Part shown: positions 1,757 through 30,725 of the stretch, piece by piece
How positions within the stretch are numbered: position 1 is the stretch's first letter
Layout of the letters: every line of letters begins with the position of its first letter
Source of the DNA: Candidatus Micrarchaeum sp.
GTDB taxonomy: Archaea > SpSt-1190 > DYHY01
Assembly: GCA_020723935.1 (NCBI GenBank)
Contig: DYHY01000001.1
Location: forward strand, 51,265 to 115,015
Direction: 5' to 3'
DNA: 63,751 nucleotides
Notes under the pieces: model-generated
The model's input: only the letters and a program-made list of their open reading frames with translations
Database searches by the model: none
Told to the model about the DNA's origin: nothing
Position numbers and translations under genes: made by a program

Positions 1757-1759
1757 CTC

Positions 1760-4391: not shown

Positions 4392-4399
4392 AATAAAAG
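4392..4399 (+). promoter_or_regulatory. TATA-like box (aataaaag) for the B12-radical SAM gene
   Basis: Lies 24 nt upstream of ATG 4423. The same aataaaagcg motif recurs upstream of ATG 10923. Confidence 0.5.
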
Positions 4400-4422
4400 C
4401 GTCGGCAAGGGGCCCCGGCGAA

Positions 4423-8539: not shown

Positions 8540-8625
8540 TTTCGTCGTTCGGGCCGCGCGCTTCTTCCTCCCGCGCAAGCCCCTTTTGCCCTTTTTATTA
8601 CTAGTTTCCCGGCTCCAGGGAAGGG

Positions 8626-8633
8626 TTTTTATT
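8626..8633 (+). promoter_or_regulatory. TATA-like box for the NMNAT gene
   Basis: tttttatt lies 25 nt upstream of GTG 8658. Confidence 0.45.
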
Positions 8634-8657
8634 GGGCGTCTGGCGGTCCCCTGTCCC

Positions 8658-14562: not shown

Positions 14563-15660
14563 TCAGGTCTTCTTTTCCAGGTCGTCGGCTATCTTTGAGA
14601 TTTTGATCATTGTCTTCTTGAGGGCGGCGATCCTCTCCAGGGTGGAAAGGCTCCTTGGCGCCTCGCGCGAAACGGGGACCCTTGTCGGGACGCGGCCCAG
14701 CACCCTGTCGCGTATGCCTTCTGCCTCGGGAAGGCTCTGGATAGGGGCTGCCTGGGGCAGGAAAGAAGAGGGCGCGACGGGCTGCTGGGGCGCCGGCTGC
14801 GGCAGGTATTGTGCCTGCGCCGGCTGCCGGCGCGGCGGCAGGGAGGAGACCTTCCTGACTGCGAATATCACGAGGAGGATCCCGGCCAGGCCCAGCAGGA
14901 TTCCGCCTGCGATCGGCCCGTACTGCTGGAGCAGGCCCTGCCCTGTCTCCGGCGAGCCGAAGATGAGGTCTCCCAGGTCCATCCCGCCGGCGGTCGTCTG
15001 CGTCGCGCAGGCGCTGCAGTCGGCCGAGCACGTCGCGCAGGACTCGTTTCCGCCGCACGTCCCGTCGCCGCAGGTCTGCGTCCAGCAGACCCCGCAGTCC
15101 TTGGGGCACGCGGAGCATGATTCGGCTCCGGCGCACCTGCCGTCGCCGCAAACCGCGGCCTCGGCGGGCGGGCCTATCCTGATTGCAGTCGTCTTCGAAT
15201 TGAAGCCGCCGGGATAGATCCAGAGCGTGACGACGCTGTGCTCCGAGCCGTTCTGGGCGCCGGAGGGGATGGAGAGCTGATAGGAAAGGACGATCGAATT
15301 CGCGAACTCCGATGAGAACTTCCAGTGGTAGGCGTTGTAGACCTTCCCCTGGTATGAGCGGCTCCTTGTGTCTATGCTGATGTGGTCCTTGGGGTAGCCC
15401 GAAATTGACCAGTTGGTTATCGTCCATCCGGACGGGACGAACTCGGCGAGGTCGAAGGCGGAGAGGGGGCTGTCCCCGGCCGATATTGTGAAGGCCACAG
15501 GGAAGGAGGATCCGGGGAGGTTTGCGACCTGCCCGCTCCTCTCGACGGCCGGGTCGGCGAAGGCCGGGGCGCAGAGGGCGAGGACCGCTGCCAGGGCTAG
15601 GGCCAGGGCTAGCGGGAACGGCGCGCGCGCTGGAAGCTTATCAGTTAGAGTTAGCGGCAT
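14563..15660 (-). CDS. Type I membrane protein with an S-layer-like N-domain, two CGDGxC Cys-rich repeats, a TM helix and a Pro/Gln-rich cytoplasmic tail
   Basis: Signal peptide, then VPSGWTITNWS. CGDGRCAGAESCSACPKDCGVC and CGDGTCGGNESCATCSADCSAC occupy 15007-15150. TM helix is GPIAGGILLGLAGILLVIFAV. The start overlaps the upstream gene by 20 nt. Confidence 0.6.
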   Translation of the reverse strand: MPLTLTDKLPARAPFPLALALALAAVLALCAPAFADPAVERSGQVANLPGSSFPVAFTISAGDSPLSAFDLAEFVPSGWTITNWSISGYPKDHISIDTRSRSYQGKVYNAYHWKFSSEFANSIVLSYQLSIPSGAQNGSEHSVVTLWIYPGGFNSKTTAIRIGPPAEAAVCGDGRCAGAESCSACPKDCGVCWTQTCGDGTCGGNESCATCSADCSACATQTTAGGMDLGDLIFGSPETGQGLLQQYGPIAGGILLGLAGILLVIFAVRKVSSLPPRRQPAQAQYLPQPAPQQPVAPSSFLPQAAPIQSLPEAEGIRDRVLGRVPTRVPVSREAPRSLSTLERIAALKKTMIKISKIADDLEKKT

Positions 15661-17353
15661 AGTAGGAAGTCAGGGCGTCGAGGACCCTCCAGAAATCGAC
15701 GCCGGGCTCGCGGTTGTAGTAGCGCTCTATCAGGGATATTATGTCCCAGAAGGCGGTCCTCTGCTGGCCGGTTATCGCGAAGAGCGAGAGGCCCGGAGAG
15801 CTTGACCTAAAGTAATAGTATGTCGCATTCTCCCCGGCCGCGGTCGTCTCGAGCGGCTGCCAGGATCCGCCCGAGAACCTGAAGAGGGCAATCGTCGAGA
15901 CGTCAATGTTGTTGTCCCGAATCCAGGCCTTCGTCACGCGGAAGTCCAGCCTCACCGGCGGGATTATCTGCGAGTCCAGTATCTTCTCGTGCGTCACGTT
16001 GTCGTACTGGTAGAGCATCCCGGGCGGCGCGGGCGTGAAGTTCCCCAGGTTCAACTTCACGATGTATATGGTCGCGTTCGCTATGAACTGCCGGTAGCTG
16101 AAAAGTATTGTCGTTATCGCCTGCCTGCTCGCGTTGAAGCCGAAGCTCACCTGCGCGTTCACAGGGACCTGGCGGTAGGAGACGTCGGCGTCGGCGGGGA
16201 TCACCGTCCTGTTGGACGGGGGGATTCTGACGTCTCCAGGCCCGCCTCCGGAGCTCGTGCTGGTCGTGGTTACTGGCACAGCTATCGTCTGGCTGGAGTT
16301 GGAAACCTGCTCGCAGTTGTTCGGGAGGAGGCAGCTACTCGTGTAATAGACCAGGACGTCGCTTACGTTGAACGAGCCCAGGTACACCGAGTGGCTCGCC
16401 GAGAAGAGGCCGTCGCTGGCGTTCTGTATGGGGCCGCCGTTGAGGGCGTAGAAGAGTGTGGAGTTTGAGGACATATGGGTCGTCCAGCTGGCGGTGATGT
16501 TGGTCGTGGGCGCGGTCGTGCTGAAGGACACGCCCGACGCGCTGAAGCCTATCGTCGCGTTGATCGTCTGGTTCTCGCACGCGCCGTTGAGGCAGGAGCC
16601 CATGACGAACGACACGTTCTGCGTCGCGTTGAAGGCGGCGGAGGTCGCGGAATGGTTGAACGCCATTGTTGCGTTCCCGGCCGACCCAGCCCCCCAGTAG
16701 AGCGTCGCGTTCATGGCCGCGCGGGTGTTCCAGGTGGCGTTGACAACGTCGCCCGTCCTCGGGGACGCGGGCGAGAGGGCGGGCGAAAACATCGCCGGAC
16801 CGACCACGGGCGTTATCGTGCCGTTGGCCTGCGCCGTCGAGTTGACGCATATAGAAGTCGTCGTGTTGCAGCTCTTCACGAAGATCTCCATCTGGCAGCC
16901 GGAGGGCGGGCAGGTGTCGGGGGAGTAGGAGAAGGGCCCTATCTGAATGAGGTGGTTTTCCGAGACGGTCGCGTTCTGCACGAGGAGGACCTGCGTGCCG
17001 TTGGAGAACTTGCGCCACACCGAGGAGTTCAGGGGGTAGGGGTCCGTCCCGTTCGTCGTCGTGAACCACGTCACGTTCGACAGGACCCCGGTCACGAAGC
17101 CGTCGTTTATCCCGTTCGCCGGTGCAGCCATCATGTTGAGGATGCCGACGCCATCGACAGTGAGGTTGGGGCCCTGGCCGCACGTCCCGAGCGAGAGGCA
17201 TGCAGGGATGACCTCGAAGAGGCCCGGAAAAGTCTCGGCCTTCGCGACGTAGATGGCGAAGAGGAGGACGAGGAGGAGCGCAAGGGGCATGGCCAGAGCG
17301 AGCGCCAGCCTCATCGCCTTGCCTTTGCCCAAACGTCTCTCCGTTCCCATCAT
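15641..17353 (-). CDS. Secreted, sequon-rich protein with a C-terminal PGF-pre-PGF-like domain
   Basis: Signal/TM peptide, many N-x-S/T sites, and a C-terminal ...DFRVTKAWIRDNNIDVSTIALFRFSGGSWQPLETT...YYYFRSSSPGLSLFAITG typical of archaeal surface proteins. Confidence 0.6.
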   Translation of the reverse strand: MMGTERRLGKGKAMRLALALAMPLALLLVLLFAIYVAKAETFPGLFEVIPACLSLGTCGQGPNLTVDGVGILNMMAAPANGINDGFVTGVLSNVTWFTTTNGTDPYPLNSSVWRKFSNGTQVLLVQNATVSENHLIQIGPFSYSPDTCPPSGCQMEIFVKSCNTTTSICVNSTAQANGTITPVVGPAMFSPALSPASPRTGDVVNATWNTRAAMNATLYWGAGSAGNATMAFNHSATSAAFNATQNVSFVMGSCLNGACENQTINATIGFSASGVSFSTTAPTTNITASWTTHMSSNSTLFYALNGGPIQNASDGLFSASHSVYLGSFNVSDVLVYYTSSCLLPNNCEQVSNSSQTIAVPVTTTSTSSGGGPGDVRIPPSNRTVIPADADVSYRQVPVNAQVSFGFNASRQAITTILFSYRQFIANATIYIVKLNLGNFTPAPPGMLYQYDNVTHEKILDSQIIPPVRLDFRVTKAWIRDNNIDVSTIALFRFSGGSWQPLETTAAGENATYYYFRSSSPGLSLFAITGQQRTAFWDIISLIERYYNREPGVDFWRVLDALTSYYAANSN

Positions 17354-17398
17354 CTTCGCTTTCCTTTTTATCTGTTTAGTAGAGTCCTTCCCCGCCCA

Positions 17399-20300
17399 TC
17401 ACGGCCATACCGCCAGGATCTGCGCGATAGCGGTCGCGTTCCAGTTGCCCGCCGTGTCGTTGGCCCATACCTGCCAGCCTATGAACGTGTTGTTGGCGAC
17501 GCCCGTGGAGTTCGTCCAGGTGAAGTTGGACCATCCGCCTGTGAAGCCCTGCGTCGCGCCGGTGTAGTTGACCCACGCGCCCGTCTCGTTCGTTGAGAGG
17601 AAGCTTGAGCCCAGCGCCAGGTTGTCGATCCAGGAGGAGGAGAAGAGGACCGCATCGCCCGCCGAGGCGTTGAACTCCGTCACGTTCTGCGCGTAGGACG
17701 TGAACTGCGGGGCGACCGTGTCCAATGTTACCGTGCGCACGGAGGAGTCGACGGCGTTCTGGGCCTCGTCGGTGATGCTGACGAAGTACGTGTAGAGGCT
17801 GTTGGGCTGGCCCGTGACGTTGAAGAAGCAGTAGTTGTTCGCCGGCGGAGCCTTGGTGAGCGCCATCGTGTAGTTGGTCATCGCGTTGAACTGGAGGACG
17901 CAGGAGGCGGGGTTCGCCTCTGCGAAGGTCATGTTGACCTCGACGTAGGTCCTCGGGACGCTGGAGCCGTTCGCGAGCGTCGGGGCGACGTATGTCAGGC
18001 CTGCCGGGAAGATCGTGTCGACGAGGAACGTCCTGTTGGCCGAGAACGCCGGGTTCCCTGTTGTGTCGTTGGCGAATCCGGCCCAGACGTACCAGCCGTC
18101 TGCCAGGGCCGCCAGGGTCGTCCAGATGGAGTTGTTGTAGGGCGTTGAGTTGAGGACCTTGAGGCCCCAGCCTCCGGACCAGTTGCCGTAGACGGCCAGG
18201 GCGGAGAGTGCGAGATTGTCGGTAGCGCTCAAGGAGAACGAGACCTGTGAGGAGCTGATGTTCGCGAAGGCCGCCGGGGCGAAAAGCGTGACGAGCGGGC
18301 CCGTCGTGTCGGTGACAGTCACGTTCGTCGTGTTGGCGCCGGGCGACGCGGGGGGGGAGATTGTTGCCGGAAGGCCGGTGTTCCCGTCGATTGCCGAGGC
18401 TATGAAGGCTGACAGGGAGTCGTTGGACGAGAGCGGGGCAGTGACGTTGAACACCGCCGTCGCGGTCTGCCCGCTGTAGATCTGGGATATCGTGAAGGTC
18501 GGCGGATACACCGGCATTCCCTGGGCAGTGGTTAGGTTCACAACAACGTCGTCGGCGGTCGCTCCCAAGGGGGAGGACTTGACAGTGACGTAGGCGGTGT
18601 AGTTGGCCCCCGTCCCTGGGCTCGCCGGGAATATCGAGAGCCCGGTTATCGAGACGTTGGCTTTGGAGAGGTTGTGGGCGCCGGCCAGCCAGCTGTAAGT
18701 CCCGTTGTACTTCCCGACGGGGAGGCCCTCTGGGACGAGGAAGTTGAGGTAGACCGTCTGGTCGCGCACGTATGCAGTCGTCAGGTTGTCGTCGCAGAAC
18801 GTCGCCGGGGTGTCGCTAGTGGCCATCGAATCCCTCACCTGGGAGATCTGGTTCCCGCCCGAGAAGCAGTGCGCCTGGTCGCGGTAGACGAGGCCCGCCC
18901 AGCTGTTGATGAAGAACTGGTCGCAGTCGAAGCAGTCGGTGTTGTTGAGGTTAGATGAGGTGAGCTTGGAATAGTCGCCCTTCACCGACATGTCGAAGCG
19001 AACGAGGAAGTGGTCGGTGCCGGTCCCGTAGGCCGTCTGCTTGGAGATTGAGACTGCCGTCTCGTTGAAGCCGGGCCGGGAGAGGATTGACGCGTTGGAG
19101 GAGTTCAGGTTCCCCGATACGTCGGATGTATTGACGAGCGCAAAGAGCGTCCCGACGGGGAGGTTCGCGCCGTCGATCCCCGACATTTTGCAGGACGATC
19201 CGGCGCATCCGGACAAGGGGGCTGCAGCGCGCACTGTCTGGCCGGCCGAGTCCACTATTTTGTAGGCCGACGCGGTGAAGTTGACGCCCGAGGAGTCCAC
19301 CCCGTACTGCTCGTCGAAGGAGACGCTCAGGTTGAAGGTCTCGAAGCCCACGTAGCTCGTGCCGTTGTTGCCGCTGACGGAGACGAGGACCAGGGGAGCG
19401 ACATTGTCCTGCAAGTAGAGGAGGAAGCTCTGTGCGGTGGACGAAGTGAAGGCGAGGTTCGTCGCGTTCGGGGCGTAGCCGGCCTTGCTCGCGTTCAGGA
19501 GGAGGGGCGTCCCGTCGGATGTCTCGCTTCCCGAGACGAAATAATCAGACCCCGAGGGAGCGGCTGTATAATTGGGGATGAATGTGGCCACCCCCTCCGA
19601 GTCTGTCGAATTTGTCGCGATGGCTATTCCTGACGAGAGGAGCTTGACCGTCGCCCCCTGTACCGGGGCGTTCGCCCCCCAGGCCTGGCGCACCGTCACA
19701 TTTATCTTGGCCCCTATCTTGATTGTCCCGAGGTTGAGCGGCGCGGTGGCGTTCTCGGCGGCCTGGTAGGTGTAGTTGATGGGGTTTGACACCATCTCGC
19801 CGAAGGACTGCTTGCTCGTGACGAGGAACACCTTGCTGGCGTTCGTGAGCTCCGTGTTGTTGAAGAAGCCGTCGGATGGCGTGCTCTGCCCGTTCACGGA
19901 GAGGAAGTCGCAGCCCGAGGAGGTCGTGACGCACGAGGCGACGGGCGCCGAGAGGGTGTTGTTGTAGAGCGTCAGGAGGACGCCGCTGACGGCCGTCCCG
20001 GACCAGTCCGACACTGCCGCGTGGACGTTCTGGGCGTGGAACGTGAAGTTAGCGGCCTGCGTCAAGGAGGAGAGCGCCATCCCAGTCAGGCCGACCGTGT
20101 TGTAGCCGGACTTTGACACTATCGCGTTCACCGCCGGATACGCCGTCGGGTCAACGTCGAAATACGCGATGTTCGAGGCGTCGGAGAGGACGATCTGCGA
20201 TGCCCCGGACGTCGTCTGGCCGCTTATTGTGATGGTTGTCCCGTTGAGCGGCAGGCCACCCCAGTCACGGGAAGTTATCTCCAGGGTGTAGGGCAGGTTC

Positions 20301-23300
20301 ACCGTGAGCATGGTCTGGTTGTTCGGGTACGTCGTGTTGACGGCTATCGTCGGCGTGTTCATGGTCACGAACCCGGGCCTTGCGACGGAGGCGAGGTGGA
20401 AGCCCGTCGGGAGGTTGAGATAGTAGAGGGATTTGCCGACGTCCTGGACGACCTGCGCCGTGGCGTTGGGAGTCACCACGACGGATGTCGCTATCGGGAC
20501 CCCGTCCTTGCTCCTCACGTCCAGGCGCACGCCGAAGTCTAGGGCCTGGAAAGAGGTCGTCTGGGAGGAGGCGCTGGAATTGACGTCTGCCTTGCGCTCG
20601 ACATACCCAGTCTTGTTGATTATCACCGACCAGGGGCCGGCGGGCAGGGCGAAGTAGTAGGTGTTGTTGAGGGAGACCTCCGGGACTAGGGGTGCGCGGT
20701 CGGAGAAGTTGAAAAAGCCGACGCCCGAGGACATCTCCGCCATGGACTCTGCGTTGTTGGGGAAGCGCCTCACGTCGAAGATGATGGAGTACTGCGGCGC
20801 GCTCGCGTCGCTTGTGTTGAAGTAGACGGTCGTCTGGCTCTCCTGATCCACGCCGCTAGCGGTCTTGGACTTGGTGACGAAGCCGCTCTTTGAGACGGTT
20901 ATCTGTGGGCTTGCGACGGCCGGGTCGCAGAAGTAGTGGTGGCCCAGCTGGCCGGCGACGGAGCCGCACCACACCGAGGTGTTGGAGACCGATAGGACCG
21001 CGCTAGTGAGGTTGGCGCCGAGCTCGTCGTTCACTATCACCCTTAGGGAGAAGTCGCTTGAGCCGTTTAGCACGAACTGCGGCCCAGCGGGGGAGGGCGA
21101 GGTGGCGGCGGCCGAGGTGAAGGCCACGAAGCCGGGCTTGGAGATCGTCGCTGCGGCGAAGGTCCCCGACGGGGAGGGGCAGCCCCAGTCGTATATGCGC
21201 GAGGAGCTGTTGACGCACGACGTGGTGCCGAAGGATATGGCGCCCCCGTTCCTGAGGTCGCGCAGCACCCCGTAGGCATCGTACGTCTTCACGAGGATCG
21301 TGAAGCTGTTGGAGCTGCTGATTGCTAGCTGGCTCCCTGTGGTCGCCGGCGAAACGAACGACGAGTTGAAATCTACGTATCCAGAGAGCCCGACCGTCGC
21401 CCAGGAGGACGTCGACGCAGGGACGGGGCAGAACCAGTCGCTGAAGCTGGAGTTTGTGCAGGGTCCTGCGGAGAACGTCGTCAAGACCCCTGGGACATTC
21501 AGGAGCGCGCCGAACTCGGACTTTGCGTTCACCCTGACGGTGTACCTGTTGGCGGAGGTGTTCGTTATCTGCGGGCCCGCGACGGTCGCCGGCACCGTCT
21601 GCCCGAAGAAGTAGTAGTTGAGGCGTCCGCTCGAAGCAGCGGGGTTCACCGAGACCGCTGCCGGGGAGGTGCCCGGCGCGACGGGGCAGCCCCAGACAGC
21701 CGAGTTGTTCTTCACCTGGCAGGGCACCAGGCCGAAGGAAACCGTGGAGACGTTCCCGCCGACGAGGTCCAGGCCGAGCTCGTCCTTCGTGAAGATCTTG
21801 AGGGAATAGGGCAGGGGCACGAACGCGGTGGACTGGAAGTTGGGGTTGAATGGTATTATCGGGCTCGTCAGGCTGAGGTAGCCGCCCGAGGGGTTCGCGG
21901 TGATTATTATCCCGGGGGATTCGTCGCCGGAGACGGCGGGGCAGCCCCACTTCATGCCGCTCGCGGTGCAGTTCCCGGAGAGGAGCTTGACCATCGAGAC
22001 CTCGGAGGCTGTCAGGGTTGTCTCGTTGAACTCGTTCCTCGCGTACACTATGAGGTCGAAGAGGCTCGTAGAGTTCATCACGACCTGCGGGGCGGAGGTG
22101 TTCGCGGGCGGGACGGTCCCCTGGAAGAGGAGCGTGACGTAGCCGGGCTTTGCGACCGTGAGGTTCCCGCCCGACGCGAGGCCCATTGTGAGGTTGACGT
22201 CCTCGGCGACCGTCGGGACGGGGCAGCCGTACTGCGAGAAGTTGCCCTGGTTCTGCCTGCAGAAGATCGTGGCGTTCTTGTGCGCGAAGGAGACCGCCCC
22301 CGTCGAGGTGTTTATGAACTGGCCGAACTCGTTTGAGACCTTGAGGAAGATAGTGAAGTTGGCGGTGATGTTTATCGCCGCCTGGGTTATGTTGTTGGGG
22401 CTCACCCCCGCCTGCTGGACCATCAGGTAGCCGGGGTTGGTGTGGCTGAGGTTCGCGTTGAAAGAGATCGTGAAGGGGCTGGTGTGCATGCTTATGTCGA
22501 GGGGGAAGATCAGCACCCCGTCGGCGGTCCCGTTGTGGTCCATCGGCGTCCCGTCCTGGAAGTTCTTCTGCCAGGGCGTGACGGCCGAGTCGCGCACGGT
22601 GATGTTCGCGAACGGCACCTGGTTCCCGAACTGGTCGGTGACGACGACCTTGGTGTTCGGGTCAAGGAGGATGTTTGCGTTGTTCGCGCCCCCCGCGGGG
22701 AGGGTCGCGTTGCACGACGAGACGGTCCCGGAGCCCACGCACATCCGCGACGCGTCCACTGTCACGTTGTTCCTCACGTAGGCCGGCGAGAAGGCGGTTA
22801 TGTTGACTATCGTCCCGAGGGGCACCGGACAGAGGTGGCTGTTTGTCCCTGCGCGAACGGTGCACTGCCACTGGCCGGCCCCGGAGGTGTTCTGGGCGTA
22901 GACGGTGGCGTCGGAGAGGTCGGGCCCGCTCTTTATCTGGTCGCCGTTGAGCTTGTCGGTCGTGTTGACCACGAGGGTGTAGATCACGACGTCCCTGCTG
23001 CCCGTCCCGAGGTTGCCAACGGCGTCGGGGATGGAGACGACGAGGGGCTCGGTCCCGAAGAGCGACACGTCGTTGGGGACCAGGACGTTCCCCGAGCAGG
23101 CCCCGGACGAATACGAGACGTTGAGGGCCGTAGGTATCCCGCCGACCGTGACGGTGCACTGCGTGTCGCCCACCCCAGAGGACGTGTCAAAGACCGTCGC
23201 GTTCACGAACACAGTCTCGCCCTGCCTGAAGTGGCTGTTGCTCTGGGGCGATATCACGGTTATCGAGGGCATCGTGTTGTCGACCGTGAAGAGCGTCGCG

Positions 23301-24493
23301 TTGTTCCCTGTGGTGAGGGGCTGGCCTATCCCGGAGATCCCGTCGAAGTACGAGACGGACACGTTCCCGAACCGCGGCCCCTCCGTCGCCCCGCTCGCCG
23401 TGACGTCGAATGTCAGAGTCTCGAGGGCGCCGCCGCCTATCTGGACGACGGAATCCGTGTCGACTATGACGTACTGGCTGCTCAGGTTCGCGCCCTGGCC
23501 GTTCACGATGTAGAGGTGCTTGCTCGTGAGGTTGGCGGGCGCAGTCGTGCTCGAGCTGCCGGCGTTCTGCACCTGGACGGTGACCCGCGCCGTCCTGAAG
23601 TTGGGGTTGTTGGAGAGGAACGTGACGTTGGAGACCGTGGATGCAACCGTGAGGCTGGGCGGGTTGAGGACGGTCGAGAGGGAGGTCATGGGGTTGGACG
23701 TCGTGTTGAGCTGGCTGTTCTGGTCGGTGGCGTTCGCGGAGAAGGACACTGTGAGGGGCCCTTGGGTGGTGTTGGCGAGGACTGTGAAGGAAACGTTAAA
23801 GTCGCCGGAGCCTCCGCCCGCGATCGACCCGATCGTCGCCGGGAAGACGGCCGCCGGAAGCACCTGGTTGGCCGCCTGGACCGCCACGCTCGGTATCACG
23901 TTGAGCGCCGTGGCGCCGCCCTGGTTGACGATCCTGAACAGGGCCCATACGTTCGTTTGCCCCTTGGAGACCTGCACGGGAATCGGGGTCACGACGCTGG
24001 CGGCGAGCTGCACCTTCGCCTGTATCTGGACGGACGCAGTCGTGTTCACCGTGAAGTTGGTCGCGTTCAGGCTGAAGACGGGTATCGCCGCGGTCCCGGG
24101 GGCGGCGGGCGCCGACGTGAAGTTGAAGCGGATTATGGCCGAGGAGAGGGGGGCGAGCGTCCCGTTGTAGCAGCTCAGGAGGAGCGGGGGGGCGCCGCCG
24201 CCCGGGCTCGTCAGGCTGTAGAGCGGGAGGGACGCCGGGCAGGCTATGCTGTCGGAGACTATTGAGCCGCCCGAGTTGAAGGGCGACAGGTCTATCTTGA
24301 CGGCTGTTATGCCCTCCCCGCCGGTGTTGGTCACGTTGAAGATGAAGGACACGTTCTGGTCCGTGCTGACGATCGTCGGGGAGACCGAGGCGGTGTGGGC
24401 GGTCGCTGCGAAGGCAGGGGAGAACACCAAGAGCAGCGCGGCTAGGAAAAGGAGATGCCTTGCTGCTGCGGGCGGCCGGATGCGCCTGCTCAT
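17399..24493 (-). CDS. Giant secreted surface/adhesin-like glycoprotein (about 2364 aa)
   Basis: ATG 24493 overlaps the upstream stop (ATGA). Signal peptide ...FSPAFAATA. Has Ig-like D-T-x-x-P boundaries, six tandem C..WGCP modules and very many N-x-S/T sequons. No C-terminal TM helix. Paralogous to 24490-30441. Confidence 0.8.
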   Translation of the reverse strand: MSRRIRPPAAARHLLFLAALLLVFSPAFAATAHTASVSPTIVSTDQNVSFIFNVTNTGGEGITAVKIDLSPFNSGGSIVSDSIACPASLPLYSLTSPGGGAPPLLLSCYNGTLAPLSSAIIRFNFTSAPAAPGTAAIPVFSLNATNFTVNTTASVQIQAKVQLAASVVTPIPVQVSKGQTNVWALFRIVNQGGATALNVIPSVAVQAANQVLPAAVFPATIGSIAGGGSGDFNVSFTVLANTTQGPLTVSFSANATDQNSQLNTTSNPMTSLSTVLNPPSLTVASTVSNVTFLSNNPNFRTARVTVQVQNAGSSSTTAPANLTSKHLYIVNGQGANLSSQYVIVDTDSVVQIGGGALETLTFDVTASGATEGPRFGNVSVSYFDGISGIGQPLTTGNNATLFTVDNTMPSITVISPQSNSHFRQGETVFVNATVFDTSSGVGDTQCTVTVGGIPTALNVSYSSGACSGNVLVPNDVSLFGTEPLVVSIPDAVGNLGTGSRDVVIYTLVVNTTDKLNGDQIKSGPDLSDATVYAQNTSGAGQWQCTVRAGTNSHLCPVPLGTIVNITAFSPAYVRNNVTVDASRMCVGSGTVSSCNATLPAGGANNANILLDPNTKVVVTDQFGNQVPFANITVRDSAVTPWQKNFQDGTPMDHNGTADGVLIFPLDISMHTSPFTISFNANLSHTNPGYLMVQQAGVSPNNITQAAINITANFTIFLKVSNEFGQFINTSTGAVSFAHKNATIFCRQNQGNFSQYGCPVPTVAEDVNLTMGLASGGNLTVAKPGYVTLLFQGTVPPANTSAPQVVMNSTSLFDLIVYARNEFNETTLTASEVSMVKLLSGNCTASGMKWGCPAVSGDESPGIIITANPSGGYLSLTSPIIPFNPNFQSTAFVPLPYSLKIFTKDELGLDLVGGNVSTVSFGLVPCQVKNNSAVWGCPVAPGTSPAAVSVNPAASSGRLNYYFFGQTVPATVAGPQITNTSANRYTVRVNAKSEFGALLNVPGVLTTFSAGPCTNSSFSDWFCPVPASTSSWATVGLSGYVDFNSSFVSPATTGSQLAISSSNSFTILVKTYDAYGVLRDLRNGGAISFGTTSCVNSSSRIYDWGCPSPSGTFAAATISKPGFVAFTSAAATSPSPAGPQFVLNGSSDFSLRVIVNDELGANLTSAVLSVSNTSVWCGSVAGQLGHHYFCDPAVASPQITVSKSGFVTKSKTASGVDQESQTTVYFNTSDASAPQYSIIFDVRRFPNNAESMAEMSSGVGFFNFSDRAPLVPEVSLNNTYYFALPAGPWSVIINKTGYVERKADVNSSASSQTTSFQALDFGVRLDVRSKDGVPIATSVVVTPNATAQVVQDVGKSLYYLNLPTGFHLASVARPGFVTMNTPTIAVNTTYPNNQTMLTVNLPYTLEITSRDWGGLPLNGTTITISGQTTSGASQIVLSDASNIAYFDVDPTAYPAVNAIVSKSGYNTVGLTGMALSSLTQAANFTFHAQNVHAAVSDWSGTAVSGVLLTLYNNTLSAPVASCVTTSSGCDFLSVNGQSTPSDGFFNNTELTNASKVFLVTSKQSFGEMVSNPINYTYQAAENATAPLNLGTIKIGAKINVTVRQAWGANAPVQGATVKLLSSGIAIATNSTDSEGVATFIPNYTAAPSGSDYFVSGSETSDGTPLLLNASKAGYAPNATNLAFTSSTAQSFLLYLQDNVAPLVLVSVSGNNGTSYVGFETFNLSVSFDEQYGVDSSGVNFTASAYKIVDSAGQTVRAAAPLSGCAGSSCKMSGIDGANLPVGTLFALVNTSDVSGNLNSSNASILSRPGFNETAVSISKQTAYGTGTDHFLVRFDMSVKGDYSKLTSSNLNNTDCFDCDQFFINSWAGLVYRDQAHCFSGGNQISQVRDSMATSDTPATFCDDNLTTAYVRDQTVYLNFLVPEGLPVGKYNGTYSWLAGAHNLSKANVSITGLSIFPASPGTGANYTAYVTVKSSPLGATADDVVVNLTTAQGMPVYPPTFTISQIYSGQTATAVFNVTAPLSSNDSLSAFIASAIDGNTGLPATISPPASPGANTTNVTVTDTTGPLVTLFAPAAFANISSSQVSFSLSATDNLALSALAVYGNWSGGWGLKVLNSTPYNNSIWTTLAALADGWYVWAGFANDTTGNPAFSANRTFLVDTIFPAGLTYVAPTLANGSSVPRTYVEVNMTFAEANPASCVLQFNAMTNYTMALTKAPPANNYCFFNVTGQPNSLYTYFVSITDEAQNAVDSSVRTVTLDTVAPQFTSYAQNVTEFNASAGDAVLFSSSWIDNLALGSSFLSTNETGAWVNYTGATQGFTGGWSNFTWTNSTGVANNTFIGWQVWANDTAGNWNATAIAQILAVWP

Positions 24494-27400
24494 GGCCAAG
24501 GCGGGGAGGGACCTCCGTCGAAATCGTATGTCGCGGTGTAATTGTCAGATATCGTGCCGGCGGGGACAGCGACCCTCAGGATAACGGACTGCTCCCTCGC
24601 GTACTGGGTGGAGAGGTTCTGGTCGCAGATCGGCTCGGTGAAGACGCCGGTCGTGTAATTGTTAAGGATGGTGAAGCTCCTGTTCCCTTCCGCGCCGGCG
24701 GGCCCGCAGCTCGTGGAGTTGAAATATGCCAGGGTCGCGCAGAAGCCGCCGGGGCAGGAGGCATCCGTTATGTTGAGCTCGTTTCCGGGGTTGAACACCC
24801 CCTTGAAGTTGGAGAGGAGCATCCTCAGGGAGGTCCCCTTGAGCGTCACGTTGAGCATTATCTTCCAGACGTCGAAGCCGTTGGAGAACGCGTGGTAATC
24901 AAGGAAGGCCACGGAGTTCTTCCTGACGCCCGGGCGGGAGTTAAGGTCTATAGCCGTGACGTTCTGGTTGCCGACGACGTCGGAGCTGTTCACCTTCAGG
25001 AAGAGGTGGCCGGTCGGGAGGTCCAGGCCGCTGATCGCGAGCACCGAGCAGTTGGCGGCCCCGGTGCAGACGTTAGTCCAGTTCCTGACGGGGAAGCCAG
25101 TCAGGTTCTCTATCCGGTAGTAAGTCCTGTTGGTGTTGAGGCCGCTCCCGTCCGCACCGTAGGGGTCGCTCGTGCTGAAGTTGAGGTCGAAGCTGTTGAG
25201 AGTGAAAGCGGTGGCGTTCGCCGGGGTCGCGACAACTATCATCGGCGGCTCGTTGTCCGAGAGGCTCCTATTGAGGAGCGCGGGCGCCGAGCTGTTGAAG
25301 GAGAGGCTCGTGGAGTTCATGGCGTATCCGGCCTTCTGGACGAAGAGCGAGTAGGGCGAGAAGTCCGGGAGCTCCGAGGGGGCGATCTTTGCGTCCGCCG
25401 CCGAGGCCTCCGCGTAGAAGTCGGGGCTGATGATCGCGTAGCCCGAGGAGTTGGTCGTGACTTTCCCGACCGTCGCTGCGGTCGCGTTCGTGATGTAGAC
25501 CGAGGCGTTGGCGAGCGCTAGGAGCGATCCCCAGGACTGGAAGGCGTAGACGCGCACGTTCCCGCCAATCCTCACGTTCCCGGCGTCGAAGGGCGGTGTC
25601 GCGTTCTGGAAGTAGTACGTCCCGTCCGCCTTCTGCACGGGGCCGAAGTCCGTCTTGCTCGCGCCGACCACAAGGGTGTCGCCCTCGGAGAGCTCGTTAG
25701 AGTTGAAGATGGAATCGTCCGGGGTCGTCGGCCCGTAGGACGAGTTGAAGGTGCATATGCCCGAGGCGGGCGTGACGCATTCGGCGAACTTGCTCAAAGT
25801 GTTGTTCCTGAAGAGCTCGATCTTTGCGCCCGCCACCGCAGACAAGTGCCAATCGGTGAGGTTCACGACGATGTTCTGCGCGTGGAAGGATTCCCATTCT
25901 CTCGGCGAGGCTGAGGACACGGGGCTAGGGCCCAGCGAGAAAGTGTTGTAACTGGCCTTGGCGACGTTTGCCGAGAGGCTCGGGTATGTCAGGGGGTCTA
26001 TCTCGAAGTACGCGGTGTTGGCGTTCCCTTCCAGGGTGACGGAGTAGAGGAGCGTCCCGTTGGGGGCCTTGATGTTCACCGTCGTGGCGTTGAGCGCCTT
26101 TCCCCCGAAGTCGAGGGAGGATACCTTCACCGTGTGCGGGAGGCGGAGGACGTATTGGGACTGGCCCGACGGATAGGTGCCGTTCGCGGCGACGGGCGTG
26201 GAATTGGTGACGAACCCCGTGCGCGACGCGGTGACGGTGGCGGCGCCGTTCGCGAGCGGGAAGAAATAGCTTGAGGTCGACCCGTTCTGGAAGAAGGGTG
26301 TGGGGGAGAAGGAGGCGCCGGAGACTATCGCCGAGCCGTTGTCCGAGAGAAGGGTCACCTTGACGGTGAACTGGAGGTCCGCCGAATCGATGTACGGGGT
26401 GGAGGGGGCAGTGGAGAAGGAGAAGAGCTTGTCGACGTAGCCCGACTTCCTCGCTATCATCGACTGCGTGCCCGTTGGGAAAGCGAAATAGAAGATGTTG
26501 GAGCTTGAGGCGGAGGGTGCCACGGGCGAGCCGCTCGTGAAGTTGACAAAGGAGACGCCCTGCGACATCTGGGTCGCGTTGTTTGCGACCTCCCTGGCGA
26601 CGCTTATCTTGGCTGTGAAGGGCAGGCCGAAGCCGGTGTTGTTGGTCATCTGCAGGAGGACCTGGGGGCCCGCGGAGGACATCCCGGAGGCCGGCGCGGA
26701 GGTCGTGACGTAGCCGGTCTTTGACACGGAGACTGTGCTTGAGTCGGTGGAGACGGCGCAGTAGTATCTGTTGGAGTTTGCGATGCACGATGGCTGGGAG
26801 AGGCCGATAGGGGAGATTGTGGCTCCGGAGAGGTCAGATCCGAGCTCGTCTGTGAGGACGACTTTCAGGGTGTAATTGTTTAACGACGTCACATGGGTCT
26901 GCGGGCCGGCGGAGGAAGGGGTGGAGATGCCCGTGGCGTTCCAGTCTATGAAGCCGAGGCCGCGGACCGAGACGTTCCCGGCCGAAGACCAGGCCGCCGG
27001 GCAGCCCCACTGGGACGGGGTGCTGTTGGAAAACACACACTGCAGGCTGTTGAACGTGACGTTCCCGCCCGCGGTGATGTTCGGGTAGTTCCCGAGCTCG
27101 TCCCCGGTGCTCACCATGACGGTGAACTGGTTGCTGGAGTTCTGCACGAGCTGCGGGCCGAAGGAGTTGGGGGCGGTCACCGGCTGCGGGGTGTCGACGT
27201 AGCCGTTGGCGCTCGCCGTGACCGTCGTGGAGACGGGGAGCGATATCGGGCAGTGCCATTCGTAGAGCGTCGAGTTCATGCATGCGACAGTCGTGCTGCC
27301 GGAAGCAAACCTCACCGACACGCCCTGGAAGTTGAGGGGCTCCTGGAACTCGTCCGTCGCGAGGACCTTTACCGAGTATTTGTTGGCCGAGACCGCGACC

Positions 27401-30400
27401 GCCGAATAGGACGCGTTGATCTCGGTTGGCGGCGTGACGCTGGGCGTTATGTGGTTGATCAGGTATCCGGCAAGGGAGGTGTTCACGTGCACCGGCGAGG
27501 AGTTCGTCCCTATTGGCACGGCGCAGCCCCACGCCCAGCCCAGGGTCGCGTTGGGGTTCTGGACGCAGGAATATGTTATCGGCCCCGCGAACGTGACCGA
27601 GGAGATGTTCCCGGTCACGTTGCTCCCGAGCTCGTCCTTGGCGAAGAGCTGCACTGTGAACAGGTTCGCCGACTGATTCCTCTGCTGGAAGCCGTCGGAG
27701 GGGGCGAGGGCGAACGTGTTCTGCAGGAAGCCGCTGGAGTTCTTCGGGGTGACTGTTGCGTTCAGGTCTATCCCCGGCACCGCCGCGCAGCCCCACAGGT
27801 CCCCGGACGCCTTGCACTCGCCCGTCACGGGTAGCGTGACGGAGCTTATCATGGCAGATGTCAGGCTCCGGTTGTAGGAATCGCGCGGCTCCACTATTAT
27901 CGTGAAGTTGCTCACCGTGGTGTTCAGGACCTGGGGGCTTGAGGGGTTGACGGGCGGGGAGATCCTCCCGGTCAGCAGGTTGACGTAGCCCTGCTTTATG
28001 ACCGTGAGCCTCGCTCCGTTCGTCGCGTTGTAGCTTGAGTTCCCGATCTCGGCGGACGTCGGGATCTTGCATCCGTAGACGTTGTAGTTAGTGCCGTTGG
28101 ACTGGCACGCCACGGGCGGGAAGCCGAACTCGCCGTCGAGGTTGTAGATGACGGAGCCTCCGGAGATGTTTATTACGTCCCCGAACTGGTTCTTCGTGTT
28201 GATGATCATCGCGAACTTCACAGTCTTGTTTATCACCGTCTGCGTGAAGTTGTTGGGGTTTATCGGCCCCGTCTCCCAGGAGAGCATGCCGCGGTTGTTG
28301 AACGTGTTGTTGAGATTGAACCAGGCGAAGAACGGCGCGACGTGCTTTGTGGTGTCAAGGGGCATTATTATCATCCCGTTGAGTGTGCCGTCCTTGTCTC
28401 GCTCCTTCCCCTCCGTCACGTCCGTCTGCCAGCTGTCCGTGCTCGCGAGGGTGATGTTGAAGCCTAGGAGCGGGTTCCCGAACTCGTCGATCACGCGCAG
28501 GATGGTGTTGGGCTGGAGCGCTATCCCCTTGCTCACGAACCCCCCTGTGGGGGTCGCGGCCGAGCAGGACACGAGGGAGGGGAATTCGGGCCCGACGCAG
28601 GCGCGGTACTGGTCGAGGCTCGCGTTGTTCCTGACGTACGCAGGCGAGTAGGCTGTAATGTTCACGATCGTCCCGGGCGGCACGGGGCAGTAGTGGTCGA
28701 GCGTCTTGTTGACGAAGCAGGTTATCGGCGCGCCCACGCCCGACGTGTTGACCACGACGACTGTGGAGTCTGATATCTCCGGGGAGTCCTGGATCGCCTC
28801 GCCCGTCAGGGCGTCGGTCGTGTTGACGAGGAGCGTGTAGATGATGATGTCGCGGCTGCCCGCCCCCCCGGCGGGGGGGTTGTTTGCAACCCTGTCCGGG
28901 ACGAAGACGCGTATCGTCGTGAAGTCGTAGAGGGACGGGTCCGAGGGGATCGTCACGTTCCCGCTGCAGGCGCCCGAGACCGGCGTCCCCGCGTAGGAGA
29001 GGTTGGTTGACGTCTGGATGGGCTGGCCGGCGGCCTGGAAAGTGACGGTGCAGTAGCTGGCCGTGACTCCGGCGAGGTTGTCCGTGACGGTAGCGTTTAT
29101 GAAGAGCTGCTGGCCCTGCCTCGCGTACAGGTTGCTCGCGGGGACCGCCACGGCGACGTTGGGCGCGGCGGTGTCGTAGCTGAAGAGTGTCGCGTTGTTC
29201 CGGGTCGCTGCGAGGTATTCTATCCCGCTCGCAGGATCGATGTAGCTTATCGTCGTGTTCCCGTAGAAGAGGCCGTTAGCGAGCTGCTGGCCCGTGACCT
29301 CGAAGATGATGCTGGCGGTCTGGCCGGAGATGATCTGCGAGACGGAGTCGAGGGTCTGGATCGAGAAGTACGGCGCGGAGTTGCCCTGGGCGTCCGTCAC
29401 GACGAGGTTCTTGGAAGTTATGCTCGCCGGAGCCTCCCCCCAGTTCCTCACCTGGACTGTTATGTTGACCTTGTTGTTGAGCGCCTCGTCGGATATGAAC
29501 GGGGTGCTGTTGGCCACGGAGAGTATGGTGAGGTTGGGCGGCGCCAGGACATAGGTGCCGTTCTGGGCTGTCGTGGAGTCGTACGAGAGGAGGCTGTTGA
29601 GGTCGGTTGCCGTGAAGTTGAAGGTGTGTGTGAGGGTGCCGTTGGCGGCGTTCGCGGGGATCGTCAGGAAGAACGTGTACGTGGCGTCGCTGGAGACCCC
29701 GTTGTCGCTGAGCATCGGCGGGCTCCCCATTCCGTTTATCACGGGGGAGGGGCTCGGGATGATGTTTCCTGCCGCATCGACTATCCTGCTGACGAAGGAG
29801 GCGACCTGCGAGGGGGCGAGGGGGGAGTTGGCGTTGTTGCGCAGGCGGAAGGTCACTGGCACGTTCGGCTGGCCCTTGGAGACGTTCCTCGGATACGGGG
29901 AGAAAAGGCTCGAGTTGAGGACGGGCTTGAACTGGACCGTCACAGGCGCCCCGCGGGCGCTCTGGTTGCCCTGCGCGTCCCTCAGCGCGACGGAGACGTT
30001 TATCGGGGTGGCGCTCCCAAACGACTGCGCCGCGTCGAAGGAGACTGCGACGACTAGGGACGTGCCGCTGGGCGCGCCCAGGAACCCGTCCCTGCGGAAG
30101 CACACGAGGCGCGTGTTGTTCTCTATTCTGTAGGCGCTGAGGTCCCATCCGGCCCCGCTGGGGCAGTCGGGCGCGGGCGAGGTGAGTATCGCGCCCGACG
30201 GGTTGAAGCCGCCGAAATCCACAGTTATGTTCTCTATCGCGGCGTCGGATGTCATCTGGTCCGTCGAGAATCCGAAGCGCACGACCTGGTCTGTGCTCAC
30301 GATGTCGGAGACGCGCAGGCCGCCGGATATGACTGTCGAAGTGAAGTTGGGTGGTCCGGCGAGGGCGGGCGAGGCGAGGAGGGCCAGGGCGAGGAGCGGT

Positions 30401-30441
30401 AGCAGGAGGGCGAGGGCCAGCGCGCGTCTACTTCCTCTCAT
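24490..30441 (-). CDS. Giant secreted surface/adhesin-like glycoprotein (1983 aa), paralog of the downstream gene
   Basis: Signal peptide MRGSRRALALALLLPLLALALLASPALAG. Shares colinear blocks with the 2364-aa protein, for example SRDIIIYTLLVNTTD...CPVPPGTIVNITAYSPAYVRNN. Confidence 0.8.
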   Translation of the reverse strand: MRGSRRALALALLLPLLALALLASPALAGPPNFTSTVISGGLRVSDIVSTDQVVRFGFSTDQMTSDAAIENITVDFGGFNPSGAILTSPAPDCPSGAGWDLSAYRIENNTRLVCFRRDGFLGAPSGTSLVVAVSFDAAQSFGSATPINVSVALRDAQGNQSARGAPVTVQFKPVLNSSLFSPYPRNVSKGQPNVPVTFRLRNNANSPLAPSQVASFVSRIVDAAGNIIPSPSPVINGMGSPPMLSDNGVSSDATYTFFLTIPANAANGTLTHTFNFTATDLNSLLSYDSTTAQNGTYVLAPPNLTILSVANSTPFISDEALNNKVNITVQVRNWGEAPASITSKNLVVTDAQGNSAPYFSIQTLDSVSQIISGQTASIIFEVTGQQLANGLFYGNTTISYIDPASGIEYLAATRNNATLFSYDTAAPNVAVAVPASNLYARQGQQLFINATVTDNLAGVTASYCTVTFQAAGQPIQTSTNLSYAGTPVSGACSGNVTIPSDPSLYDFTTIRVFVPDRVANNPPAGGAGSRDIIIYTLLVNTTDALTGEAIQDSPEISDSTVVVVNTSGVGAPITCFVNKTLDHYCPVPPGTIVNITAYSPAYVRNNASLDQYRACVGPEFPSLVSCSAATPTGGFVSKGIALQPNTILRVIDEFGNPLLGFNITLASTDSWQTDVTEGKERDKDGTLNGMIIMPLDTTKHVAPFFAWFNLNNTFNNRGMLSWETGPINPNNFTQTVINKTVKFAMIINTKNQFGDVINISGGSVIYNLDGEFGFPPVACQSNGTNYNVYGCKIPTSAEIGNSSYNATNGARLTVIKQGYVNLLTGRISPPVNPSSPQVLNTTVSNFTIIVEPRDSYNRSLTSAMISSVTLPVTGECKASGDLWGCAAVPGIDLNATVTPKNSSGFLQNTFALAPSDGFQQRNQSANLFTVQLFAKDELGSNVTGNISSVTFAGPITYSCVQNPNATLGWAWGCAVPIGTNSSPVHVNTSLAGYLINHITPSVTPPTEINASYSAVAVSANKYSVKVLATDEFQEPLNFQGVSVRFASGSTTVACMNSTLYEWHCPISLPVSTTVTASANGYVDTPQPVTAPNSFGPQLVQNSSNQFTVMVSTGDELGNYPNITAGGNVTFNSLQCVFSNSTPSQWGCPAAWSSAGNVSVRGLGFIDWNATGISTPSSAGPQTHVTSLNNYTLKVVLTDELGSDLSGATISPIGLSQPSCIANSNRYYCAVSTDSSTVSVSKTGYVTTSAPASGMSSAGPQVLLQMTNNTGFGLPFTAKISVAREVANNATQMSQGVSFVNFTSGSPVAPSASSSNIFYFAFPTGTQSMIARKSGYVDKLFSFSTAPSTPYIDSADLQFTVKVTLLSDNGSAIVSGASFSPTPFFQNGSTSSYFFPLANGAATVTASRTGFVTNSTPVAANGTYPSGQSQYVLRLPHTVKVSSLDFGGKALNATTVNIKAPNGTLLYSVTLEGNANTAYFEIDPLTYPSLSANVAKASYNTFSLGPSPVSSASPREWESFHAQNIVVNLTDWHLSAVAGAKIELFRNNTLSKFAECVTPASGICTFNSSYGPTTPDDSIFNSNELSEGDTLVVGASKTDFGPVQKADGTYYFQNATPPFDAGNVRIGGNVRVYAFQSWGSLLALANASVYITNATAATVGKVTTNSSGYAIISPDFYAEASAADAKIAPSELPDFSPYSLFVQKAGYAMNSTSLSFNSSAPALLNRSLSDNEPPMIVVATPANATAFTLNSFDLNFSTSDPYGADGSGLNTNRTYYRIENLTGFPVRNWTNVCTGAANCSVLAISGLDLPTGHLFLKVNSSDVVGNQNVTAIDLNSRPGVRKNSVAFLDYHAFSNGFDVWKIMLNVTLKGTSLRMLLSNFKGVFNPGNELNITDASCPGGFCATLAYFNSTSCGPAGAEGNRSFTILNNYTTGVFTEPICDQNLSTQYAREQSVILRVAVPAGTISDNYTATYDFDGGPSPPWP

Positions 30442-30613
30442 TTCCTCCGATCCTCTCCATCTGAATCTTCCCGTTGCTCACTAGGTCAAGGAGCCTCCTC
30501 AGGAGCTCCGACTTGGAAATGCGCCTGGCGGTGGGCTTGTCCTTGTTGTAATTGAACAGAATCTCGTCTACGGAACGCATTTTTTCGTCCGCGTAGTCGA
30601 AACTAGCGCGCAT
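30428..30613 (-). CDS. Small ribbon-helix-helix (CopG/Arc-like) DNA-binding protein, 61 aa
   Basis: ...ARRISKSELLRRLLDLVSNG resembles the RHH helix pair. The 3' end overlaps the giant gene start by 14 nt. A TATA box lies 25 nt upstream. Confidence 0.5.
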   Translation of the reverse strand: MRASFDYADEKMRSVDEILFNYNKDKPTARRISKSELLRRLLDLVSNGKIQMERIGGNERK

Positions 30614-30636
30614 TGTCCATTTTTCGGCCGAATCCC

Positions 30637-30646
30637 CTTTTAAATC
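30637..30646 (-). promoter_or_regulatory. TATA box of the RHH/giant-protein operon
   Basis: Plus-strand cttttaaatc (minus strand gatttaaaag) lies 25 nt from ATG 30613. Confidence 0.55.
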
Positions 30647-30653
30647 TTTCGTA

Positions 30654-30721
30654 CCTCACTCAAATAAGTGGTCATTTCTTTCAGTGAGTAATTGAGGTGT
30701 TGAGCAATTGAGTGAGTGAGG
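30654..30721. promoter_or_regulatory. Operator-like repeat cluster upstream of the RHH promoter
   Basis: Inverted 9-mers cctcactca (30654-30662) and tgagtgagg (30713-30721). An additional gtgagta lies at 30684-30690. Direct aattgag repeats lie at 30690-30696 and 30705-30711. Confidence 0.45.
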
Positions 30722-30725
30722 CACT

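Follow-up and report, generated by a model that had tools for sequence, protein, structure and literature searches.

The window analysed here, the whole 63,751-nt stretch presented above, is a fragment of an archaeal chromosome with a GC content of 64% that encodes TFIIB, Trm1 and ABCE1 and, on its minus strand, two adjacent open reading frames (ORFs) for giant proteins, A and B, each of which carries in its middle part a tandem array of small modules marked by a pair of cysteines. The two proteins are colinear paralogues with 35% identity over ~1900 residues; A has, in addition, a C-terminal region of ~420 amino acids (aa) that is not in B. Both N-termini read as signal-peptide-like, and Ser, Thr and Asn together make up 30% of the giant proteins. 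At the C-terminal ends (...AQILAVWP in A and ...GGPSPPWP in B) we saw no anchor, that is, no transmembrane (TM) helix and no hydrophobic tail; the combination of a PGF-CTERM motif and a TM helix was not found in either protein, and the NCBIfam scan for it gave no match.

A first-pass annotation of the window had described six tandem modules in each giant protein, at 20855-22363 (minus strand) for A and 26662-28218 for B, and these intervals map exactly to residues 713-1215 of A and 742-1260 of B. All twelve motifs that it quoted are present (QYGCP, KWGCP, VWGCP, DWFCP, DWGCP and YFCD in A; VYGCK, LWGCA, AWGCA, EWHCP, QWGCP and RYYCA in B). Alignment of the twelve modules gives the consensus S.N.FT..V...DE.G..L.......V.F....C..S......WGCP............TV...GYV.........P...GPQ, in which both Cys, which lie 8-13 residues apart, and the Gly of the G-Y/F-V element are invariant. 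The module start described earlier, F/Y followed by D/N-E-L/F-G, is largely common to the twelve modules (FT..V...DE.G in the consensus), and most of them finish in GPQ. The number six holds for this central block of Cys-pair modules, and the array as a whole is longer: a hidden Markov model (HMM) of the twelve modules already finds further copies, and with one of the module family we find ~10 copies per giant protein, seven of which have the Cys pair (one divergent upstream copy and the block of six), followed by three downstream copies that have none (Table 1). The upstream Cys pair is embedded in ...WQCTVRAGTNSHLCPVP... in A and in CFVNKTLDHYCPV, with an N-glycosylation sequon in the loop, in B. 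In the Cys-free copies an aromatic hairpin replaces W-G-C-P, as in NNTYYFALP, with an aromatic residue at the second Cys position.

Table 1. Coordinates of the module arrays, the giant-protein gene cluster and other features of the window, with identity to the orthologous locus (L081) of the archaeal metagenome-assembled genome GCA_043803745.1. Residues of the six modules of A follow the numbering from TTG; scores are those of the family HMM (i-E, independent E-value) unless a model is named.
Feature	Window position	Strand	Length or residues	Cys pairs	Score or remark	Identity to L081
61-aa ORF	30428-30613	-	61 aa		First gene of cluster, directly upstream of B; 14-nt overlap with B start	85%
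Giant protein B	24490-30441	-	1983 aa			~38%
Divergent upstream copy in B	28618-28839	-	535-608	575/585	25.5 bits, i-E 6.5e-10	
Six Cys-pair modules of B	26662-28221	-	741-837, 843-916, 924-1008, 1018-1097, 1102-1181, 1186-1260	779/791, 876/885, 959/973, 1054/1064, 1135/1147, 1219/1228		
Three Cys-free copies in B	25915-26625	-	1273-1348, 1356-1418, 1434-1509		32.3, 26.3 and 5.9 bits	
Giant protein A	17399-24499	-	2366 aa from TTG; 2364 aa from ATG at 24493			~42-44%
Divergent upstream copy in A	22760-22981	-	507-580	546/557	17.1 bits, i-E 2.6e-7	
Six Cys-pair modules of A	20834-22366	-	712-805, 810-887, 897-977, 982-1057, 1062-1141, 1147-1222	747/759, 844/853, 927/938, 1014/1024, 1095/1107, 1178/1191		
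Three Cys-free copies in A	20096-20794	-	1278-1310 (C-terminal half only), 1319-1390, 1401-1468 (HMM matches)		Start of span, at ~residue 1236, set by eye from first strand YSIIFDV	
C-terminal extension of A	17399-18680	-	~1940-2366			
570-aa secreted, sequon-rich protein	15641-17353	-	570 aa		PGF-pre-PGF domain, residues 390-529; TIGR04213 90.6 bits, E 9.8e-26	50%
365-aa protein	14563-15660	-	365 aa		Signal peptide, two Cys-rich repeats, one TM helix, charged cytoplasmic tail	39%
ABCE1	6764-8797	-	677 aa from TTG			65%
TFIIB						95%
Three radical-SAM genes and a PMT_2-type membrane protein	413-4859 and 10923-11882					

The repeat greatly exceeds what chance would produce. An HMM built from the modules of B recovers the six modules of A at 18-39 bits (E 2e-7 to 5e-14), compared with a top score of 9.7 bits among 200 shuffles of A, and when the pair of modules at one position is left out, an HMM of the other ten recovers it at E 4e-9 to 5e-18. 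Identity of the modules to a reference module is 21-37%. Tandem Repeats Finder detects no DNA-level tandem repeat in the A or B genes, and the modules are therefore old, diverged duplicates. Module i of A has as its best match module i of A's orthologue in five of six cases, and the corresponding module of B or of its orthologue is among the top matches. This conservation of module number and order indicates that the array is older than the duplication that gave rise to A and B, and the length of the array appears to be constrained.

The module is not peculiar to this genome. An exhaustive HMMER search with the twelve-module profile of 1.84 billion representative proteins (one protein per 50%-identity cluster) returned 146 proteins at E<=1e-3 (of which 65 reach E<=1e-10 and 19 reach E<=1e-30), among them the window's own two proteins (P0004 and P0005); the source names of all are "hypothetical" or equivalent, except for P0028. 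Three groups can be told apart. The best outside matches, P0001-P0003, are acidic, sequon-poor proteins of 3307-3588 aa that contain 17-24 near-identical copies of the module, with the repeat FTLRVNVEDELGNALTGATVAQ.VGSTV.CTEDGATGQYYCAVPDGE.T.V.VSKAGYVTK...TAGNAA.AGPQ, and that carry Big_1 domains close to their C-terminal end; the contig of P0001 (3.17 Mb) looks bacterial. The second group (P0006-P0011, P0024 and others) is sequon-rich and is taken as the archaeal type: P0006 and P0008 are encoded by adjacent genes of an NCBI metagenome-assembled genome (MAG) labelled "archaeon", and P0024 comes from an "uncultured archaeon". The third group comprises bacterial proteins with S-layer homology (SLH), Big_5 (P0012, P0021) or PG_binding_1 (P0044) domains, some of them on contigs of 0.55-1.2 Mb; P0028 is an SLH protein, named as such, from Candidatus Peregrinibacteria, and SLH-like C-terminal sequences can be read by eye in P0031 and P0033. 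The Big_1 and Invasin_D3 matches in the bacterial homologues lie at their C-terminal ends, outside the repeat region. The exact DNA of the window was found in a single subsurface metagenome run; an exact look-up of the sequence of protein B returned no record, and a back-translated pattern scan of GTDB genomes with protein A found no relative.

The two cysteines of the module are gained or lost together. The family HMM finds 679 module copies in the 146 proteins, 649 of which span both Cys columns, and these comprise 409 copies with both Cys, 227 with neither and 13 with a single Cys, counts that are not phylogenetically independent. In the Cys-free copies the second Cys position is mostly occupied by F, I, Y or W, which suggests a side chain that faces the core. 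In a set of 148 diverse modules, conservation of the two Cys and of one Gly is at least 90%. The motif around the second Cys is aromatic-x-C-[PA]-[VAI], mostly W-G-C in sequon-rich proteins and Y-Y-C in the others. Between the giant proteins and their orthologues in L081, at an overall identity of only 39-44%, 26 of 30 Cys (A) and 26 of 28 Cys (B) are kept, a share far above the background.

The same pairing extends over the full length of both proteins. All cysteines of A (30, in 15 pairs) and of B (28, in 14 pairs) lie in close local pairs, each with a partner within ~10-30 residues, also outside the six modules, which suggests one local disulfide per domain from end to end of A and B.

Curated domain libraries contain no model for the module. 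Scans of the whole of A and B against Pfam and NCBIfam give only sub-threshold matches, to bMG3, Big_7 and CarboxypepD_reg (the last at 14.9 bits), all outside the six modules, and no Big or TIG family (PF02369, PF01833 and others) has a match on the modules of the window in these scans or in those of single modules. Scanned singly against Pfam, nine of ten modules (eight of the twelve reported modules and two Cys-free downstream copies) have no match; the tenth, module A6, matches PF13620 (CarboxypepD_reg) over profile positions 2-76 of 82 at 16.4 bits, E 0.012. This remote similarity to PF13620 recurs across the family: it is found at E<=1 in 25 of the 148 family modules scanned singly (best E 9.7e-5), compared with at most four for any other Pfam family (TIG PF01833, four; PEGA, three; CarbopepD_reg_2, two; Big_3, one). 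PEGA (PF08308), for which the best sub-threshold E-value is 0.0059, and CarbopepD_reg_2 belong to the same Pfam clan as CarboxypepD_reg. The earlier statement that the module belongs to no named domain family is thus upheld at curated thresholds, and not in the sense of an orphan fold.

Other sequence searches were empty or uninformative. Pfam finds nothing in the repeat region of P0001, the homologue with 24 copies, and neither the twelve-module profile nor the whole of A finds anything in the PDB. The 148-module profile finds only PDB matches at E>0.02, mostly nanobodies at a short ...YYC... stretch; the likeness of the second-Cys motif of the bacterial modules, T.VYYC.VP, to the framework-3 TAVYYC of camelid nanobodies (E 0.02-1) is taken as convergence of a short motif at a disulfide Cys and not as homology. 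A word-index homology search with the array region and with the 148-module alignment gave no match, and it also missed the query's own protein, which marks the limit of its sensitivity. The literature that we searched contained no description of this module.

Structure prediction of a single module gave an all-beta fold. A first AlphaFold model, from the twelve window modules only, had a predicted local distance difference test (pLDDT) score of 65.9 and was discarded together with its Foldseek matches, which are meaningless. The AlphaFold2 model of module A5 from an alignment of 148 diverse module sequences is a small beta-sandwich with pLDDT 86.3 and a predicted TM-score of 0.69. By TM-score, its best Foldseek matches in the PDB are domain II of duck carboxypeptidase D (1qmu_A; TMq 0.58, root-mean-square deviation 2.6, probability 0.90) and, from the human enzyme, the isolated transthyretin-like domain (5aq0_B; TMq 0.58, TMt 0.56, 75 columns). 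In a library of predicted viral structures the lowest Foldseek E-value belongs to a PEGA-domain protein, and the top ten of that library include a "Carboxypeptidase regulatory-like domain protein" (probability 0.96) and SusC (probability 0.94), a protein whose N-terminus is a CarboxypepD_reg-like domain. On the basis of the recurrent profile similarity and the predicted fold, the module can most likely be placed, as a divergent member, in the CarboxypepD_reg/transthyretin-like superfamily.

In the model of A5, the segment 32-36 is a strand that contains C34 and the segment 43-46 a strand that ends with C46; these two strands are the arms of one hairpin. The proposal in the first-pass annotation of one disulfide per module is therefore strongly, if indirectly, supported, by the co-occurrence of the two Cys and by their predicted positions; what stands is the pairing, and the bond itself is a prediction.

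The loop closed by the Cys pair differs between archaeal-type and other proteins in its content of sequons. A and B contain 104 and 85 N-X-S/T sequons, respectively, vs. 39.7 +/- 5.4 and 32.7 +/- 5.0 in composition-preserving shuffles, a 2.6-fold excess (z ~10-12). A sequon is present in 42 of 59 Cys-closed loops in the sequon-rich (archaeal) proteins (71%), often in the form C-x-x-N-x-T/S-...-W-G-C, vs. 3 of 140 in the others, and in the sequon-rich proteins sequon density is 8.2 per 100 residues in the loop vs. 5.2 in the rest of the module. Among the six core modules of the window the loop has a sequon in four in A and four in B, for example CVNSSSRIYDWGC and CMNSTLYEWHC. With 8-13 residues, the loop is also the part of the module most variable in length. 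To judge by sequons and signal peptides, A and B would be N-glycosylated proteins of the cell surface.

A and B belong to a cluster of five genes (61-aa ORF, B, A, 570-aa protein, 365-aa protein) that is found with the same genes, the same order and the same flanks (GTPase-MFS-Maf on one side, TFIIB-Trm1-ABCE1 on the other) in L081, where P0006 is the orthologue of A and P0008 that of B. The low identity of the giant proteins to these orthologues, set against that of TFIIB, indicates that the giants evolve fast, like exposed surface proteins. The 61-aa ORF (MRASFDYADEKMRSVDEILFNYNKDKPTARRISKSELLRRLLDLVSNGKIQMERIGGNERK) is far better conserved than the giants downstream of it: its counterpart in L081, an ORF of 62 aa, occupies the same place, aligns with it over 55 aa and has the same 14-nt overlap. 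It has no Pfam or NCBIfam match and no signal peptide; for the latter reason it is possibly cytoplasmic, and it may be a regulator or a chaperone. The TGA of B overlaps the ATG of A as ATGA (window 24490-24493), and the L081 orthologues overlap by 1 nt, an arrangement that suggests translational coupling of B and A.

Downstream of A, the 570-aa protein has a PGF-pre-PGF domain, and a PGF-CTERM tail was not found in it. The 365-aa protein, which has no Pfam or NCBIfam match, contains two copies of the motif CGDGxCxxxExCxxCxxDCxxC followed by its TM helix; no other product of the cluster is obviously anchored in the membrane, and this one is therefore a candidate anchor. Its orthologue in L081 has one strict copy of the motif and then a degenerate second one, and the homologue P0032, which bears the module, has a similar Cys-rich motif with a TM helix at its C-terminal end. 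The C-terminal extension of A contains repeated "...NDT.GN..." and "DNLAL" motifs, and its residues 2234-2264 again weakly match the module's first strand. More copies of this region seem to be present in the orthologue P0006.

Further observations concern the surroundings of the cluster. Homologues of ABCE1 align with the listed ORF only from residue 80-90, the L081 orthologue has 591 aa, and the true start is probably downstream of the listed TTG. Among the species-representative genomes returned, the highest identity to ABCE1 is 49%, with matches scattered across Thermoplasmata, Hydrothermarchaeota, Nanoarchaeia and methanogens, which gives no placement of the organism. The neighbourhood of the surface-protein operon includes three genes for radical-SAM proteins, one of which has a B12-binding domain, as well as a membrane protein with a weak PMT_2-type match; proteins of the PMT_2 type resemble dolichyl-phosphate-mannose protein mannosyltransferases, and this glycosyltransferase could be related to heavy glycosylation of the giants. 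GC skew is ~0.12-0.18 over window positions 16001-32000, which hold the surface-protein cluster, vs. 0.03-0.07 in the flanks, a difference probably due to biased codon usage in the minus-strand cluster genes, which are rich in Ser, Thr and Asn codons. Scans of the window for Rfam families and for tRNAs found nothing.

We consider it probable, on the whole, that the array is a series of disulfide-stapled CarboxypepD_reg-like sandwiches that serves as a stiff, glycan-coated spacer rod in an envelope or adhesion assembly, and we hold the structural part of this reading more confidently than the stalk and envelope role. According to this hypothesis, each module would be an independently folding beta-sandwich of ~80 residues, a divergent variant of the CarboxypepD_reg/transthyretin-like (prealbumin-like) fold. 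The first Cys would lie on one strand of the central hairpin and the second on the strand that runs back, within the aromatic-x-C-P/A-V motif, so that the pair would form a buried intradomain disulfide that closes the variable loop of 8-13 residues, in archaea usually a loop that bears an N-glycosylation sequon. With some ten modules strung one after another on short linkers, rich in Pro and Ser and ending in GPQ, the central part of both paralogous giants would be a stiff rod, coated with glycans and resistant to proteases, with a length, at an assumed 3-4 nm per sandwich, of a few tens of nanometres. Within a cell-envelope or attachment structure, such a rod would keep the N-terminal domains of a giant at a distance from its C-terminal domains. 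The giants would be co-transcribed, and translationally coupled, with the small ORF, the PGF-pre-PGF protein and the membrane-anchored Cys-rich protein, and the last of these may anchor the structure.

Several observations weigh against this hypothesis. The gathering score of PF13620 (32.3 bits) is reached by no module. No Foldseek match in the PDB is significant (best E 0.19); the E-values of the carboxypeptidase D matches are 0.7-1.0, folds of the immunoglobulin (Ig)-like type score similarly, and the lowest E-values belong to Ig-like PorM and IPT/TIG domains and not to transthyretin-like domains. A and B have no recognisable anchor of their own, the modules in which Cys co-variation was counted share ancestry, and the disulfide, the glycosylation and the localisation are predictions from sequence and from a model.

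A first alternative is that the modules bind ligands, carbohydrates or a host surface, through the variable loop, and that the giants are multivalent adhesins of an episymbiont. The company that the module keeps, namely the Candidatus Peregrinibacteria protein, the bacterial proteins on contigs of 0.55-1.2 Mb and small, unplaced subsurface archaea, is in line with this alternative, as attachment proteins are expected in such small subsurface lineages (PMC4736985), and so are the variability of the loop and the fast evolution of the giants (38-44% identity vs. 95% for TFIIB). However, the modules have no conserved binding-site residues, the sequon usual in the archaeal loop would mask a binding site, and conserved number and order of modules are as expected of a spacer. 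We regard binding as a possible but doubtful function of the array. A further idea, which we rate as distinctly improbable, is that the hairpin closed by the Cys pair serves specifically for display: in archaea its loop would have become a site at which an N-glycan is presented within a disulfide frame, and in the bacterial versions the loop is acidic and sequon-free. The module would then be a shared, possibly horizontally exchanged building block of which the attachment apparatus is made in ultrasmall subsurface symbionts of both domains (bacteria of the Candidatus Peregrinibacteria type and unplaced small archaea).

A second alternative keeps the beads-on-a-string role and places the module in another evolutionary home, among Ig-like domains of the Big, IPT/TIG or PorM type. 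The PDB structures with the lowest Foldseek E-values (PorM, 7cmg_B, E 0.19, and the IPT/TIG domains of Met and EBF3), the sub-threshold matches of four modules to TIG and of one to Big_3, and a 59-column alignment of the profile (E 0.036) to 4uid_A, deposited as "surface layer protein", all speak for it. In addition, many of the weaker matches of the profile search cover only positions 4-31, the first strands "tvtvtDelGN..tg", a pattern typical of Big domains. Against this stand the counts of Pfam matches, six times higher for PF13620 than for TIG (25 vs. 4), the TM-scores, 0.41-0.48 for PorM and TIG vs. 0.58 for the carboxypeptidase D domains, and the C-terminal half of the module, in which the K-x-G-Y-V strand and the Cys-free Y-Y-F-x-L-P presumably resemble the CarboxypepD_reg consensus. 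An Ig-like origin is, in our view, unlikely.

A third alternative is that the Cys pair is not intradomain and serves in intermolecular disulfides that cross-link a lattice, or in metal binding. Proteins that have no anchor could need covalent networking. However, the model places the two Cys, 8-13 residues apart, on neighbouring strands of a single hairpin, their loss is joint and brings in hydrophobic residues of the core type, two thiols alone make no usual metal site, and the remaining Cys of A and B are also in close local pairs; we judge this alternative very improbable. Finally, the notion of a compositional artefact, a low-complexity sequence of 30% S+T+N that merely looks periodic, with which the empty word-index search would agree, has a negligible chance of being right, refuted as it is by shuffle scores of at most 9.7 bits vs. 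18-39 bits for the real modules, by the leave-one-position-out HMMs, by the 65 independent proteins matched at E<=1e-10, by a confident structure model and by homologues of quite different, acidic composition that bear the same module.

The module is best described as a variant, with a predicted disulfide staple and no curated model, of a very common small beta-sandwich, present in ~146 protein clusters (50% identity) of uncultivated archaea and bacteria and hence no orphan. The result indicates neither a new biological principle nor a new kind of system. What it exposes is an annotation gap: ~680 module copies in 146 proteins are now blank stretches of giant "hypothetical" surface proteins, and a profile from the 148-module alignment would label the central third of such giants, so that a new family model is justified. 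With its ~80 residues the unit is, moreover, a tractable handle for studies of the envelopes of uncultivated subsurface archaea by structural or glycoproteomic means.

The nearest parallels are CarboxypepD_reg (PF13620) and the transthyretin-like domain of carboxypeptidase D (1QMU, 5AQ0), with which the module shares a predicted all-beta sandwich of ~80 residues, a first strand followed by D-x-x-G, a C-terminal G-Y strand, the best TM-scores (0.58) and the commonest sub-threshold Pfam match; CarboxypepD_reg, too, is often found in tandem in surface proteins. The module differs in that no copy attains the gathering score; the Cys pair, the aromatic-x-C-P/A-V motif and the GPQ linker of the family's own consensus may be further differences. 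Its Cys-free sister copies have a Y-Y-F hairpin in place of the disulfide. PEGA (PF08308), a domain described in S-layer proteins, is likewise a small beta-sandwich, matched below threshold by three modules and the top fold match in the viral library; the matches are weak, and the P-E-G-A motif is not seen in the module alignment. Big_1 (invasin-intimin), IPT/TIG and PorM domains share the first-strand pattern "tvtvtDelGN.ltg" and the lowest Foldseek E-values, and differ in the lack of an above-threshold Pfam match on the modules, in lower TM-scores and in the C-terminal half.

At the level of the whole system, the archaeal S-layers of SlaA/SlaB (Sulfolobales) and the PGF-CTERM glycoproteins resemble the present cluster in having large, sequon-rich secreted proteins beside a membrane-anchored partner, and a PGF-pre-PGF protein is encoded in the operon; in contrast, no sequence similarity to them was detected, A and B have neither a PGF-CTERM nor a TM anchor, and a lattice of A and B is putative. 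As an architecture, the array is like the Cna-B and SdrD B-repeats of Gram-positive adhesins, tandem small sandwiches each of which has one internal covalent lock. There, intramolecular isopeptide bonds give a mechanically and proteolytically robust stalk. The two differ in chemistry (a predicted disulfide in the module vs. a Lys-Asn/Asp isopeptide), in sequence, with no match between them, and in hosts, archaea and bacteria of the Candidatus Peregrinibacteria type in the case of the module. The module would thereby add a disulfide-based example to the strategies by which tandem stalks are locked, beside isopeptide bonds.

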